A DNA stretch of 20,101 nucleotides, taken from UHGV virus genome UHGV-1687506, one strand, 5' to 3'. Positions 9,247 to 14,952 of the stretch are shown one piece after another (positions within the stretch are counted from its first letter, which is position 1; each line of letters begins with the position of its first letter). The position numbers were made by a program, and so were the translations under genes. The notes beneath the pieces are model-generated. The model was not told where the DNA came from, searched no databases, and saw only the letters and a program-made list of their open reading frames with translations. The DNA is from a virus.

Positions 9247-9653
9247 AAATTCGTCAGGCGCAGACCAGCGCAACCTACATTCTGCCGGACCCCGGTGAAC
9301 TGAATAAACGCGTCCTGATCCGCCTGCGGGTGGATGTGCCTGCGGATAACTTTGGCGTGGAGCCTCAATACCCGGTTACGTTCCGGACATGGGCGAAGGT
9401 TATCCAGACCAGTGCCACCACCTGGCAGGAAACCGCGCAGACCGGGGACGCCATCACCCATTACATCACCATTCGTTATCGCCGGGGGATCACCGCTGAT
9501 TATGAGGTGGTCTGCGGTGACAGTGTGTACCGGGTGAAACGTCAGCGCGATCTGAACGGGGCGCGGCGCTTTCTGCTGCTGGAGTGTACGGAGCTGGGCG
9601 AATGTAGGCAGAGTCACGGAGGCAACAATGACGACTTCCTTTTTGCACGTTGA
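9243..9653 (+). CDS. Head closure / head-tail adaptor protein
   Basis: 136 aa, ATGA-coupled to the preceding gene, in the conserved position of the head-closure family. Confidence 0.72.
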   Translation: MKIRQAQTSATYILPDPGELNKRVLIRLRVDVPADNFGVEPQYPVTFRTWAKVIQTSATTWQETAQTGDAITHYITIRYRRGITADYEVVCGDSVYRVKRQRDLNGARRFLLLECTELGECRQSHGGNNDDFLFAR

Positions 9654-10134
9654 TTTTCAGCAGCCCGCGGAGATGCGCTTTAACCGCGCCCGTGTCCGGC
9701 GGGCGTTTGTCACGATTGGTCAGCGTCATATGCGTGATGCCCGTCGGCTGGTGATGCGCCGTGCGCGGTCGGCACCGGGTGAAAACCCCGGTTATCAGAC
9801 CGGACGCCTGGCTCGTTCGATTGGTTACATGGTACCCAGAGCCAGTAAACATCGCCCTGGTTTTATAGCACGTATAGCCCCTAACCAGCGTAATGGAGAG
9901 GGAAACCGCCGTATCACCGGTGATTTTTATCCGGCTTTTTTGTTCTATGGCGTGAGGCGAGGGGCAAAGCGTCGTCGCAGCCATCATCGTGGTGCATCCG
10001 GTGGCAGCGGCTGGCGGCTGGCTCCACGTAATAACTTTATGGTGGAAACTCTTGAAAAGAACCGCAGCTGGACACGCTATTTTCTGGCGCGGGAATTACG
10101 TAAATCACTGAAGCCGGAGCGACGACACAGATGA
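9628..10134 (+). CDS. HK97 gp10-family neck/tail component
   Basis: 168-aa arginine-rich protein in the conserved position. GGAGG precedes the ATG by 5 nt, and the gene overlaps its upstream neighbour by 26 nt. Confidence 0.72.
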   Translation: MTTSFLHVDFQQPAEMRFNRARVRRAFVTIGQRHMRDARRLVMRRARSAPGENPGYQTGRLARSIGYMVPRASKHRPGFIARIAPNQRNGEGNRRITGDFYPAFLFYGVRRGAKRRRSHHRGASGGSGWRLAPRNNFMVETLEKNRSWTRYFLARELRKSLKPERRHR

Positions 10135-10691
10135 AACTGACGCCTGTTATTGCTGCGCTGCGTGCCCGCTGCCCGTATTTTGAAAACCGGGTGGCAGGCG
10201 CGGCACAGTTCAAAAATCTGCCGGAGGTCGGAAAGCTGAGACTCCCGGCGGCGTATGTGGTACCGGGTGATGATTCTCCGGGAGAAAACAAAAGCCAGAC
10301 CGACTACTGGCAGGAGCTGAAAGAGGGCTTCTCCGTGGTTGTCATACTGAGTAACGGGCGTGATGAGCGCGGTCAGTTTGCTTCGTATGATGTGGTGGAC
10401 GATGTCCGGCAGATGCTCTTTAAGGCCCTGCTGGGCTGGAACCCGGAAGCGTGCGGTAACCCGATTACCTATGACGGCGGCACGCTGCTGGATCTGAATC
10501 GTCATGAGCTGATTTATCAGTTCGATTTTTCGGTCATCAGCGAGCTGACCGAAGACGATACCCGCCAGCAGGATGACCTGAACAGTCTGGATGAACTGCG
10601 AACGCTGGCGATTGATGTTGATTATCTCGATCCCGGTAACGGGCCTGACGGCGATATCGAACATCACACCGAAATACCCCTTCCTTCCTGA
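10131..10691 (+). CDS. Putative tail completion/terminator protein (Mu-type module; family uncertain)
   Basis: 186 aa, ATGA-coupled to the upstream gene, located just before the sheath gene. The acidic C-terminal half is plausible for a real protein, but the family assignment is tentative. Confidence 0.6.
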   Translation: MKLTPVIAALRARCPYFENRVAGAAQFKNLPEVGKLRLPAAYVVPGDDSPGENKSQTDYWQELKEGFSVVVILSNGRDERGQFASYDVVDDVRQMLFKALLGWNPEACGNPITYDGGTLLDLNRHELIYQFDFSVISELTEDDTRQQDDLNSLDELRTLAIDVDYLDPGNGPDGDIEHHTEIPLPS

Positions 10692-10699
10692 GGATCATC

Positions 10700-10870
10700 A
10701 TGTTTGTGAAACCTGTTAAAGGGCGGTCAGTGCCTGACCCTGCCCGCGGCGACCTTTTGCCCGCCGAAGGGCGAAATGTTGATGAGAACAACTACTGGCT
10801 GCGCCGTGAAGCAGCGGGTGATATCCGGCGCGTGAATAAAAAGGTGAACACCGATGACGATAAGCTTTAA
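10700..10870 (+). CDS. Small 56-aa basic protein, function unknown
   Basis: Found by hand (below the track's length cutoff): ATG about 10700 to TAA about 10868-10870, MFVKPVKGRSVPDPARGDLLPAEGRNVDENNYWLRREAAGDIRRVNKKVNTDDDKL. It fills the gap between neighbours and overlaps the sheath start by about 17 nt. Confidence 0.45.
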   Translation: MFVKPVKGRSVPDPARGDLLPAEGRNVDENNYWLRREAAGDIRRVNKKVNTDDDKL

Positions 10871-12350
10871 CACCATTCCGTCGAATACGCTGGTTCCGCT
10901 GTTTTATGCGGAAATGGATAACCAGGCTGCGAATACTGCACAGGACAGCGGAGCATCGCTGCTGATTGGTCATGCCAATAACGGTGCAGAGATTGTTGCC
11001 AACAGTCTGGTGCTGATGCCGTCGGCAGACTATGCACGCCAGATTTGTGGTGCGGGAAGTCAGCTGGCGCGTATGGTCGAGGCTTATCGCCAGACCGACC
11101 CGTTTGGTGAGCTGTATGTGATTGCCGTTCCGGAAGCCACAGGCGCGGCGGCAACGGTTACGCTGACGGTGACCGGGGAAGCAACCGAAAGCGGCACGGT
11201 GAATGTCTATGTGGGACGTACCCGCGTGCAGGCTCCGGTGACCAACGGCGATAACGTCACGACGATTGCCAGCAGTATCAAAGATGCCATCAATGCCGTT
11301 CCGACTCTGCCGTTTACAGCTTCATCTTCGGCTGGCGTGGTCACACTGACCGCGCGTCATAAGGGGCTTTGCGGGAATGAAATTCCTGTCAGCCTCAATT
11401 ACTACGGCTTTGGTGGGGGCGAAGTGCTGCCTGCGGGCGTACAGATTGCTGTGGCGACGGGGACCGCCGGAACGGGCTCTCCTGTTCTCACCGGCGCGGT
11501 GGCTGCAATGGCGGATGAGCCGTTTGATTATATCGGCCTGCCGTTCAACGACACGGCCTCCGTTAACACGCTGGTGACCGAGATGAACGATACCAGCGGT
11601 CGCTGGAGCTATGCGCGTCAGCTGTATGGTCATGTGTATACGGCAAAGATCGGCACGCTGTCAGAACTGGTGACCGCAGGTGACCAGTTTAACCAGCAGC
11701 ACATTACCCTGGCGGGGTACGAAAAAGAGACCCAGACGCCTGCTGACGAGCTGGCGGCAAGCCGTACTGCCCGCGCAGCGGTGTTTATTCGCAACGATCC
11801 GGCACGTCCCACGCAGACCGGTGAGCTGGTGGGTATGCTGCCTGCGCCGAAGGGGAAACGGTTCACGATGACCGAACAACAGACCCTGCTGTCTCATGGC
11901 GTGGCAACGGCGTATGTCGAAAGCGGGGTGCTGCGCATTCAGCGTGATGTCACCACGTACAGGAAAAACGCTTACGGGGTTGCGGATAACAGCTACCTCG
12001 ACAGTGAGACACTGCATACCAGCGCGTATGTACTGCGCAAACTGAAATCCGTCATTACCAGTAAGTACGGGCGTCACAAGCTTGCCAGTGACGGTACCCG
12101 CTTTGGTCCCGGTCAGGCGATTGTCACCCCGGCGGTGATCAAAGGGGAACTGCTGGCAACCTACCGTCAGCTTGAGCGTGCGGGGATCGTGGAAAACTAC
12201 GAACTGTTTAAGCAGTACCTGGTTGTGGAGCGTGATGCCAGCGATCCGAACCGCCTGAACACGCTGTTCCCGCCTGACTATGTTAACCAGTTGCGTGTCT
12301 TTGCCGTGGTTAACCAGTTCCGTCTTCAGTATTCAGAGGAGTCTGCATAA
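10854..12350 (+). CDS. Contractile tail sheath protein (Mu gpL-like)
   Basis: 498 aa, followed by a tube gene, chaperone pair and tape measure gene, which is the canonical myovirus order. AAGGTG precedes the ATG. Confidence 0.85.
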   Translation: MTISFNTIPSNTLVPLFYAEMDNQAANTAQDSGASLLIGHANNGAEIVANSLVLMPSADYARQICGAGSQLARMVEAYRQTDPFGELYVIAVPEATGAAATVTLTVTGEATESGTVNVYVGRTRVQAPVTNGDNVTTIASSIKDAINAVPTLPFTASSSAGVVTLTARHKGLCGNEIPVSLNYYGFGGGEVLPAGVQIAVATGTAGTGSPVLTGAVAAMADEPFDYIGLPFNDTASVNTLVTEMNDTSGRWSYARQLYGHVYTAKIGTLSELVTAGDQFNQQHITLAGYEKETQTPADELAASRTARAAVFIRNDPARPTQTGELVGMLPAPKGKRFTMTEQQTLLSHGVATAYVESGVLRIQRDVTTYRKNAYGVADNSYLDSETLHTSAYVLRKLKSVITSKYGRHKLASDGTRFGPGQAIVTPAVIKGELLATYRQLERAGIVENYELFKQYLVVERDASDPNRLNTLFPPDYVNQLRVFAVVNQFRLQYSEESA

Positions 12351-12706
12351 TGGCACGTATCGGGGGAACCTGTTATTTCAAAATTGACGGTCAGCAGCTA
12401 TCGCTGACCGGCGGCATTGAGGTGCCCATGAACAGGACGGTCAATGATGACATCATCGGCCTGGACGGTTCAGTGGACCGCAAGGAAACTCACCGTGCGC
12501 CCTATGTCAAAGGGACCTTCAAGGTGCCGAAGAATTTTCCGGTGAGCAAAATCACCTCGTCTGATGAGATGACCATCACTGCCGAGCTGGCGAACGGTCA
12601 GGTCTATGTACTGTCGTCTGCCTGGCTGCACGGCGAAGCGAACCATAATGCCGAAGAAGGCACGGTCGATCTTGAGTTCCACGGTGAAGAAGGGGATTAC
12701 CAGTAA
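12350..12706 (+). CDS. Tail tube protein (Mu gpM-like)
   Basis: 118 aa, TAATG overlap with the sheath stop, GAGGAG ribosome-binding site, conserved position after the sheath gene. Confidence 0.8.
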   Translation: MARIGGTCYFKIDGQQLSLTGGIEVPMNRTVNDDIIGLDGSVDRKETHRAPYVKGTFKVPKNFPVSKITSSDEMTITAELANGQVYVLSSAWLHGEANHNAEEGTVDLEFHGEEGDYQ

Positions 12707-12975
12707 TGAAAGAGCTTGAGTTAAAGAAACCGATTACCGCTCATGGCGAGACACTCTCCGTACTGGAGTTTGATGAGCCCACCGGGAAAGATGTCCGCGA
12801 GCTGGGGTATCCCTACCAGATGAATCAGGATGAGTCCGTCAGACTTCTGGCGCATGTGGTATCGAAATACATCGTGCGGCTGGCGAAAGTGCCGCAAAGC
12901 TCTGTCGACCAGATGTCTCCGGCAGACCTGAATGCAGCGGCGTGGCTTGTGGCCGGTTTTTTCCTCCAGGCCTGA
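12706..12975 (+). CDS. Tail assembly chaperone, short form (lambda G analogue)
   Basis: 89 aa, TAATG-coupled to the tube gene and located directly upstream of the tape measure gene. It ends 10 nt after a T-rich slippery site. Confidence 0.7.
   Translation: MKELELKKPITAHGETLSVLEFDEPTGKDVRELGYPYQMNQDESVRLLAHVVSKYIVRLAKVPQSSVDQMSPADLNAAAWLVAGFFLQA
12957..12963 (+). promoter_or_regulatory. Candidate -1 ribosomal slippery heptamer T_TTT_TTC
   Basis: The sequence fits X_XXY_YYZ in the zero frame of the chaperone (codons TTT TTC at 12958-12963). Slipping back one base gives FFPPGLTAEY... in the overlapping frame. Confidence 0.55.
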
Positions 12976-13124
12976 CGGCTGAATACCTCACTGATCGCTT
13001 CTTTGACTGCGCCAGTTACTGGCGCATTAATCCTTTCGAATTGCTGAATATGCCGATCAGTGAAATTCCCTTACTGGTCAGTCAGGCAAACAGGATAGAG
13101 CAGGAGAAACGCACACATGGCTGA
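12957..13124 (+). CDS. -1 frame extension of the tail chaperone (lambda GT analogue), predicted to be made by programmed frameshifting
   Basis: The -1 frame is open from 12942 to 13124 and overlaps the end of the chaperone ORF across the heptamer T TTT TTC (12957-12963). Its stop overlaps the tape measure start. Confidence 0.55.
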   Translation, partial: FFPPGLTAEYLTDRFFDCASYWRINPFELLNMPISEIPLLVSQANRIEQEKRTHG

Positions 13125-14952
13125 ATTTGAGCTTAAGGCGTTGATCACCGGTGTCGACAGGCTTTCTCCCGCGCTGTCGAAAATGCAAAAGAAAATCCGG
13201 GGATTTAAACGCCAGGCGGAAGAAGCGTCACAGGGTGGGCTGGCGCTTGGTGGCGGACTGGCAGCGGGTCTGACGCTTTCCCTGAAATCTTATGCCGATC
13301 AGGAAAACGCCGCCACCGGGCTGAAAGTCGCCATGATGGATGCGAACGGCGAGGTTGGAAAGAGCTTTCAGGACATCAATAAACTGGCTATTGGCCTGGG
13401 TAACCAGCTACCCGGTACAACGGCTGATTTCCAGAACATGATGCAGATGCTGGTGCGTCAGGGGATCCCGGCAGAAAACATTCTGGGTGGTGTGGGTAAA
13501 GCGACAGCTTATCTTGCGGTACAACTGAAAAAAACACCGGAAGCGGCTGCTGAGTTTGCTGCAAAGATGCAGGATGCTACCGGAACGGCGTCAGAAGACA
13601 TGATGGGGCTGTTCGACACTATCCAGAAGGCGTTTTATCTGGGCGTTGACGATACCAACATGTTGTCCTTCTTCACTAAAACCAGTTCTGTTCTGAAGAT
13701 GGTGAACAAGGACGGTCTTCAGGCTGCACAGAGCCTTGCCCCCATCAGCGTCATGATGGATCAGATGGGGATGAACGGGGAGTCGGCAGGTAATGCCCTG
13801 CGAAAAGTTATCCAGTCCGGATTAAGCGTTAAGAAAATCAGGGACGTCAATAAAGTCATGGCCCGCCAGAGACTCGGGGTACAGCTCGATTTTACTGACG
13901 GCAAAGGAAGTTTTGGCGGTCTTGATAACATGTTCAGGCAACTGGCAAAGCTGCGAAAACTGACCGACGTTAAGCGAACAGGTGTACTTAAGGCAATATT
14001 TGGTGATGATGCCGAAACCCTTCAGGTGGTCAATGCACTAATCGATAAAGGAAAGGATGGCTACGATCAGATCCAGCAGAAGATGAATAAACAGGCCAGC
14101 CTGAATAAACGTGTTCAGGCCCAGCTTGGTACGCTGTCCAACCTGTGGGAGGCAATGACGGGGACCGCAACTAACGGCCTTGCGGCTATTGGCGGCGCAT
14201 TTTCTGGTGACGCCAAAAATATCACGCAATGGCTGGGGGAGTTGGGGGAGAAATTCACGAAGTTTGCGGATGAAAATCCCCGGGTTATTCGCGGCGTCGT
14301 CGGGCTTGCTGCCGGTCTTGCGATTCTGAAACTGGGATTGATGGGCGTGGGCAGTGCCATCAGTATTGTCAGCAGGATCATGTCGATGACGCCGATTGGC
14401 ATGATTGCGACGGCGATAGCCCTGGCTGCGGGATTAATTATCACTAACTGGGATGTTGTTGGACCTTATTTTAAGAAACTCTGGGAAACCATTGGTCCTT
14501 ATTTTGAGGCTGGCTGGGAACTCCTTAAGAAAGTTTTTGCCTGGTCGCCGCTGGGGATGGTGATCAATAACTGGGGGCCGGTTGTTAAGTGGTTTCAGGA
14601 TATGTGGGACAAGCTGAAGCCAATTATTGAGTGGTTTACCGACAGTTCCGGTGACACGGTCGATGCCATTAACTCTGCGCAGTGGGGCGCGGGTGCTTAT
14701 GATGCTTATGGGACGGGAATATCGGCGCGGGGATACATACCTTATCCGGTGGTGGATCTGGCTCAGTCAAACAACGCCTCCGGTGCCACAGGCCCGAATC
14801 CCTTCATGATTAACAAAGCTTCTGCGCCAAAAGTTGATGGTGAGATCAAGGTCTCTTTTGTGAATTCGCCTCCGGGTATGCGGGTTATGGAAACGCGATC
14901 CAGCGGTTTTGATGTCAGCCATGATGTTGGCTATACGCGCTTTGGCAGGTAA
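13117..14952 (+). CDS. Tail tape measure protein
   Basis: 611 aa with Ala/Gly/Leu-rich repeats, a hydrophobic segment (VIRGVVGLAAGLAILKLGLMGVGSAISIV) and Trp-rich periodic motifs. It lies after the chaperone pair. Confidence 0.9.
   Translation: MAEFELKALITGVDRLSPALSKMQKKIRGFKRQAEEASQGGLALGGGLAAGLTLSLKSYADQENAATGLKVAMMDANGEVGKSFQDINKLAIGLGNQLPGTTADFQNMMQMLVRQGIPAENILGGVGKATAYLAVQLKKTPEAAAEFAAKMQDATGTASEDMMGLFDTIQKAFYLGVDDTNMLSFFTKTSSVLKMVNKDGLQAAQSLAPISVMMDQMGMNGESAGNALRKVIQSGLSVKKIRDVNKVMARQRLGVQLDFTDGKGSFGGLDNMFRQLAKLRKLTDVKRTGVLKAIFGDDAETLQVVNALIDKGKDGYDQIQQKMNKQASLNKRVQAQLGTLSNLWEAMTGTATNGLAAIGGAFSGDAKNITQWLGELGEKFTKFADENPRVIRGVVGLAAGLAILKLGLMGVGSAISIVSRIMSMTPIGMIATAIALAAGLIITNWDVVGPYFKKLWETIGPYFEAGWELLKKVFAWSPLGMVINNWGPVVKWFQDMWDKLKPIIEWFTDSSGDTVDAINSAQWGAGAYDAYGTGISARGYIPYPVVDLAQSNNASGATGPNPFMINKASAPKVDGEIKVSFVNSPPGMRVMETRSSGFDVSHDVGYTRFGR

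Follow-up and report, generated by a model that had tools for sequence, protein, structure and literature searches.

The DNA under study is a stretch of 20,101 nucleotides from a viral genome (UHGV-1687506), which over its whole length is referred to here as the window. The window is an SfV-like myovirus prophage; positions 10854-14952 share 98% identity with the Shigella phages SfII, SfI and SfV, positions 12350-13400 match a prophage of E. coli PCN061 at 100% identity, and related sequence is present in 1,089 of 5,426 complete E. coli genomes, approximately one fifth. The known SfV design joins an HK97-like head to a Mu-like contractile tail. The tail genes were assigned from Pfam and cross-read against the annotations of SfV and PCN061. 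A tail terminator (10131-10691) is followed by a Mu gp38-like DUF2635 protein (10700-10870) and the sheath (10854-12350). Then come, all on the plus strand, the 118-aa tail tube (12350-12706; PF10618 Tail_tube, E = 2.4e-33), which is annotated as the tail tube in SfV and PCN061 as well, the 89-aa tail assembly chaperone (12706-12975; PF10109, "E or 41 or 14") and the 611-aa tape measure protein (13117-14952; PF10145, E = 9.8e-27), whose Shine-Dalgarno sequence AGGAG lies at 13102-13106. The order of sheath, tube, chaperone and tape measure is the same in the window, SfV and PCN061. Outside the tail module, the PCN061 offset places iss (increased serum survival lipoprotein) at approximately 1869-2162 on the minus strand, immediately following the lysis genes; a DNA methyltransferase is found still further upstream in PCN061, beyond the limits of the window.

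Residues 4-86 of the chaperone match PF10109 (Phage_TAC_7) with 58.8 bits against a cutoff of 25, and the N-terminal part of the protein belongs to this P2 gpE / Mu gp41 family. Its predicted fold is TAC-like and resembles that of the HK97 chaperone and of YqbN. The gene ends in the codons GCC GGT TTT TTC CTC CAG GCC TGA, and its stop falls at 12973-12975, where the first-pass annotation had put it. That annotation had also described a -1 frame ORF overlapping the chaperone by 34 nt and reaching the tape measure start, and the ORF list bears this out: the -1 ORF runs from 12942 to 13124, comprises 60 aa when counted from GTG 12942, overlaps the chaperone gene by 34 nt and ends, with TGA at 13122-13124, in an 8-nt overlap with the tape measure gene (ATG at 13117) within ATGGCTGA. 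The -1 frame is open over 139 nt ahead of the chaperone stop. In the overlap, on the plus strand, the slippery heptamer T_TTT_TTC (U_UUU_UUC as RNA) occupies 12957-12963; its phase, read from the sequence, is exactly X_XXY_YYZ with TTT and TTC as 0-frame codons, and the earlier claim proved accurate to the single base. The chaperone stop follows T_TTT_TTC at a distance of 15 nt (five codons), with three codons between the site and the stop.

If the frame changed after TTC (Phe86), the last 0-frame codon before the slip, translation would pass into a plus-strand extension at 12963-13124 that has 53 codons, the first being CCT at 12963-12965 and the stop the TGA at 13122-13124. The predicted fusion, join(12706..12963, 12963..13124), is 86 + 53 = 139 aa long by joined translation, in agreement with the figure of about 140 aa proposed earlier. 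Its junction would read AGFF|PPGLTAEY (junction region WLVAGFFPPGLTAEYLTDR), and the extension peptide in the window is PPGLTAEYLTDRFFDCASYWRINPFELLNMPISEIPLLVSQANRIEQEKRTHG. Among the 25 plus-strand ORFs of the window (5,784 codons as summed lengths) there are nine in-phase XXXYYYZ heptamers, and T_TTT_TTC occurs once; the chance expectation is approximately 0.02 heptamer per 11-codon overlap. Elsewhere, the 168-aa ORF at 9628-10134 contains a second in-phase run, T_TTT_TTG at 9936-9942. A ribosome shifting to -1 at this point would meet a stop after just 29 further residues, and the run is probably meaningless.

The homologue check proposed with the first-pass annotation was carried out. A first scan of IMG/VR returned only loci whose chaperone protein is 100% identical, which are uninformative on divergence; diversity was therefore drawn from a scan of a genome collection and from tblastn against phages. 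The genome scan gave 16 loci from different species, in Edwardsiella, Buttiauxella, Citrobacter, Atlantibacter, Scandinavium, Kluyvera, Erwinia, Pantoea, Kosakonia and other genera, with chaperone identities from 100% down to 40%. In all 16, the heptamer is T_TTT_TTC (T_TTT_TTT in the most distant pair), keeps its phase and lies 252 nt from the gene start; the 0-frame stop follows 15, 33 or 69 nt past the heptamer, and the predicted fusion is 137-139 aa long. The junction with the tape measure start, where the -1 ORF terminates, reads ATGGCTGA or closely resembles it in 15 of them. When the fusion was compared by tblastn with 50,697 phage records, 30 matched; where query coverage reached 80% or more, as it did in 23 of them, the match consistently fell into two segments that lie in different frames. 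Closer inspection covered six distant phages, namely ST64B, phiP27, SfIV, F1055, Pantoea AH07 and Burkholderia BgVeeders33. In each of them the codon position of the in-phase heptamer is unchanged, its sequence being T_TTT_TTC or T_TTT_TTT, and the chaperone frame closes 15, 36 or 69 nt later. Their -1 extensions are 53-56 aa long; the end coincides with the tape measure start in five and falls just short of it in BgVeeders33. Taken over more than 20 lineages, with identity down to about 40%, the codon position of the heptamer is constant despite the shifting 0-frame stop, and the heptamer and the overlapping -1 frame are kept in all diverged homologues examined.

The conservation also extends to positions at which the 0-frame protein imposes no constraint on the base. 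Across 12 diverged lineages GGTTTTTTCCT is invariant, including the synonymous 0-frame positions 12957 and 12960, whereas the neighbouring 0-frame third positions 12948, 12951, 12954 and 12966 each show three to four different bases. Among near-identical IMG/VR prophages TTTTTTC is intact in 118 of 120, with G at the first position in the other two. It could be supposed that the overlap is a coincidence, or that the gene is decaying or mis-sequenced and yields no functional long product, and the databases do contain singleton "fusion" proteins of 137-139 aa. Since the heptamer and the synonymous sites are conserved, a chance overlap is ruled out; the site, the frame, and the length and sequence of the extension are maintained from E. 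coli to Pantoea and Burkholderia, and the near-identical prophages keep the site intact almost throughout. This explanation is effectively refuted by the comparative data. The database "fusion" chaperones of 107-139 aa (P0001-P0006) were set aside as evidence for a frameshift; they are assembly errors, because they are singletons with several indels.

Two observations concern individual IMG/VR sequences. In three of 80 near-identical prophages (L041, L072 and L078), a sample separate from the 120 above, the site reads GGG TTT TTC or GGG TTT TTT, with G at the equivalent of position 12957; prophages with G at the first heptamer position may be decaying, or the site may tolerate a mismatch in the P site. 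In addition, one contig (L039) ceases to match the window midway through the -1 ORF, at approximately its position 2857 (window 13062), and its -1 frame continues for approximately 510 aa into an unrelated protein; this divergence is an insertion, a rearrangement or a chimeric assembly.

Downstream of the 0-frame stop, the mean pN/pS is 0.40 in the -1 frame, as opposed to 1.17 and 1.23 in the remaining ones. Purifying selection thus acts on the -1 frame, and the extension evolves as a protein. Within the clade its peptides can be aligned with no internal gaps, and they have a common core W-x-x-x-P (YWRINP in the window), of which W and P, together with an R, are invariant in 17 lineages; the motifs are kept down to 31% identity. 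In the -1 frame the amino acids become conserved precisely from the FF of the heptamer onward; the residues ahead of it vary between lineages. The extension corresponds to PHROG 32181, of unknown function. Pfam and NCBIfam hold no model for it, a PDB sequence search gave no match, and a whole-library search with the 60-aa ORF gave only 10 matches. Three long repeat proteins that matched the 60-aa query (P0124-P0126) were rejected as spurious, their weak repeat scores having been added up.

A selected peptide could also be the product of a separate small gene, initiated on its own at GTG 12942 and 60 aa long. The E. coli/Shigella lineage does have this GTG, and the ORF is called in some GenBank and RefSeq records and as PHROG 32181. 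However, ATG, GTG and TTG are all absent before the heptamer in the -1 frame of nine of the 15 distinct genome-locus sequences, and GTG 12942 itself has no Shine-Dalgarno sequence, the preceding 14 nt being CTGAATGCAGCGGC. These two facts make independent initiation unlikely. Moreover, the sole internal Met is not conserved, and conservation of the peptide sets in only at the FF of the heptamer. Translation of the -1 ORF as a gene in its own right is accordingly considered extremely improbable, and a product joined to the chaperone N-terminus is favoured.

The closest parallel is found in phage P2, where a programmed -1 frameshift producing E and E+E' was reportedly described by Christie et al. 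in 2002. It has been published as a -1 frameshift (PMC3091744) and is experimentally established, and the P2 record NC_001895 annotates it with the site GTC GGT TTT TTG. In both P2 and the window, the gene lies just before the tape measure gene, its N-terminal part belongs to PF10109 and the shift is in the -1 direction. The P2 site GGTTTTTTG and the window site GGTTTTTTC occupy codons 84-86 of a gene of approximately 90 codons, and direct comparison with NC_001895 shows the slip site GGTTTTTTN near codon 85 to be common to both. The products are also similar in size (91 aa for E and 142 aa for E+E' in P2; 89 and a predicted 139 aa in the window), the extension stop overlaps the tape measure ATG by 8 nt in each, and an obvious stimulatory hairpin beside the site is missing both in P2 (PMC3091744) and, according to the folds, in the window. 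On the other hand, the last base of the heptamer is C in the window and G in P2, the 0-frame stop follows after three codons in the window and six in P2, the extension of the window is not recognised by the P2 E' model PF06528, and the remaining tail genes resemble those of Mu and not those of P2. To judge from the sequences, the arrangement in the window is a near copy of P2 E/E+E'.

Between the extensions themselves, the profile comparisons show only a weak likeness. HMMER found no match of the extension to PF06528 (Phage_P2_GpE, the E' part) at E <= 10, and P2 E' itself scores 78.6 bits. With hhalign, 17 extensions against 18 E' sequences gave a weak alignment of 42 columns in the same register (E = 7e-4, probability 26%), and comparison with a single E' sequence gave E = 0.011. 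In this weak alignment, the extension and E' share the stretch P-x-E-L-x-x-M-x-[IL]-[ST]-E-[IL]. Homology between the extension and P2 E' is plausible on these grounds.

The gpG/gpGT pair of phage lambda and the conserved tail-chaperone frameshift of long-tailed phages are said to have been established by Levin in 1993 and by Xu, Hendrix and Duda in 2004, 2013 and 2014. As in the window, lambda has two overlapping ORFs between the major tail or tube gene and the tape measure gene and a heptamer near the end of the first ORF, and its minor fusion has an N-terminus shared with the short product, as predicted for the window. Unlike the window, lambda uses G_GGA_AAG, its proteins belong to another sequence family and its tail is non-contractile. 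The tail module of Mu is the closest relative of SfV-type tails; the Pfam name "E, or 41 or 14" covers both, and the neighbouring genes are also the same, those in the window being a gp38-like DUF2635 protein, a gpL-like sheath and a gpM-like tube. Mu has been reported to use a -2 shift (PMC5009743, PMC2628397), whereas only the -1 frame is conserved at the locus in the window, and Mu gp41 has 144 aa. The +1/-2 frame of the window closes 7 nt past the stop, and relatives do not conserve it; the early closure excludes a -2 shift of the Mu type.

Based on the results presented above, the tail assembly chaperone gene of the SfV-like prophage very probably undergoes programmed -1 ribosomal frameshifting. 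The match to G/GT-type frameshifts suggested by the first-pass annotation holds in gene order, PF10109 membership, the conserved site and frame, the selected extension and the near-copy of the P2 site. In the proposed mechanism, most ribosomes would translate 12706-12975 and release the 89-aa chaperone, and a minority would pause on U_UUU_UUC (12957-12963) with tRNA-Phe on UUU in the P site and on UUC in the A site. Both tRNAs would step back one base onto UUU_UUU, and decoding would restart at CCU (12963), so that 53 residues are added up to the TGA overlapping the tape measure ATG. The outcome would be the 139-aa fusion, with an N-terminus common to both products. E. coli decodes UUU and UUC with a single tRNA-Phe (anticodon GAA). 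Once they have slipped by -1, the P-site and the A-site tRNA would thus each face a cognate UUU.

The same fusion could in principle arise without any ribosomal event, if RNA polymerase inserted one U in the T run (T6 in the window, T7 in the ST64B clade). Such transcriptional slippage agrees with the conserved feature being a homopolymer run of T6-T7 in which one extra U gives the same frame, and with the failure to find a classical ribosomal stimulator. The phase of the run is no independent argument against it, because the conserved Gly-Phe-Phe fixes that phase. Nevertheless, efficient slippage by E. coli RNA polymerase typically takes runs of about 9 or more A/T, and the T6 run falls short of this length. 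Furthermore, the homologous P2 site has been described as a translational frameshift (PMC3091744, PMC5009743), and U_UUU_UUC is a measured ribosomal shift motif (PMC4066793). Slippage by the polymerase is therefore regarded as very unlikely, and the shift is probably ribosomal.

With regard to efficiency, U_UUU_UUC is listed among under-represented, shift-prone motifs, and in E. coli reporters it shifted at 0.12% by itself, a figure that rose to 0.89% when IS911 stimulators were present and to 7.6% when the IS3 pseudoknot was (PMC4066793 and its supplement). Since the motif alone reaches only approximately 0.1% in the reporter, some context effect would be needed. The G:GT ratio in lambda is about 30:1, and P2 frameshifts 2-3 times more often (PMC5009743). 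By analogy with these lambda and P2 figures, the fusion may be made at a low ratio, as the first-pass annotation had predicted. The same two phages suggest a division of labour in which the shared N-terminal domain would coat the tape measure protein and the extension would recruit the tube protein; a fixed ratio of short to long product would be needed for tail assembly, and neither protein would be present in the virion.

The window shares the X_XXY_YYZ tandem-slippage logic with dnaX and IS3/IS911, and U_UUU_UUC responds to stimulators of that type in reporters (PMC4066793). The dnaX/IS3 type has a Shine-Dalgarno-like element 6-17 nt upstream, a stable hairpin or pseudoknot 5-9 nt downstream, or both. 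In the window, no Shine-Dalgarno-like element was seen by eye upstream of the site in GCGGCGTGGCTTGTGGCCGG, and no robust hairpin or supported pseudoknot was found in folds 5-9 nt downstream, where the local hairpin has only 4 bp; Rfam gave no match. The only conserved hairpin is that at 13008-13026 on the plus strand (UGCGCCAG-UUA-CUGGCGCA), identified in single-sequence and alignment folds. It has a perfect 8-bp stem and a UUA loop, is unique in the window, has no U-tract and lies inside the -1 ORF. At 44 nt 3' of the heptamer, it is too far away for a classical stimulator. In the -1 frame, five of 52 third positions are invariant, and three of these five fall within the stem (Fisher p = 0.004, or 0.027 without the Trp codon); across diverged lineages the third positions of stem codons are all invariant or close to it, and the third position in the loop varies. 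Covariation is unobservable in this stem, because each synonymous stem site pairs with a non-synonymous one. The hairpin is broken in one lineage (L017) and absent from the ST64B clade.

RNAalifold proposed two long-range helices in addition. The first pairs GCCUGAC (12970-12976), which contains the chaperone stop and starts 6 nt after the heptamer, with GUCAGGC (13081-13087); the second pairs the U-run and CCU (12958-12965) with the tape measure Shine-Dalgarno region AGGAGAAA (13102-13109). Controls on covariation and pair counts gave no support for these long-range helices, 58 of 500 shuffles reaching the observed value. The first helix is present in the minimum free energy folds of four of 18 sequences, and the folds disagree on the long-range partner. 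It is unlikely that the frameshift is embedded in a conserved RNA domain spanning the whole -1 ORF, in which the hairpin and both helices would act as an unusual long-range stimulator and couple translation of the tape measure to that of the chaperone. If it were so, one RNA switch would set the stoichiometry of chaperone, fusion and tape measure. As for a terminator, the only plus-strand match in a scan was a weak 5-bp stem with the T-run as its tail, and it was dismissed.

The site in the window is a previously unannotated case of the well-known tail-chaperone frameshift, closest to P2 E/E+E'. A joined CDS is annotated in none of the records examined, which include SfV, PCN061, the distant phages and others. 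In the literature covered, searches that combined SfV or Shigella serotype-converting phages with the tail frameshift yielded nothing relevant. Five prophage clusters appear among the conserved-heptamer clusters of Sharma et al. 2014, and that of the window is not among them (PMC4066793). The main value of the finding is practical, in that annotating join(12706..12963, 12963..13124) would correct the product of an essential tail gene. A family model of the extension would also make a clean, deeply conserved U_UUU_UUY training case for frameshift-prediction tools. No new biological principle is involved; the locus indicates that a Mu-like tail module can use a P2-type -1 site instead of the -2 shift of Mu. 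The same region occurs in the serotype-converting phages SfV, SfI, SfII and SfIV, in Salmonella ST64B and in the Stx phage phiP27. In the SfV, SfII and PCN061 records, the 140 nt at 12976-13116 are left blank, and other GenBank and RefSeq records carry a stand-alone 60-aa "hypothetical protein" there (WP_001314907.1, URC08943.1).
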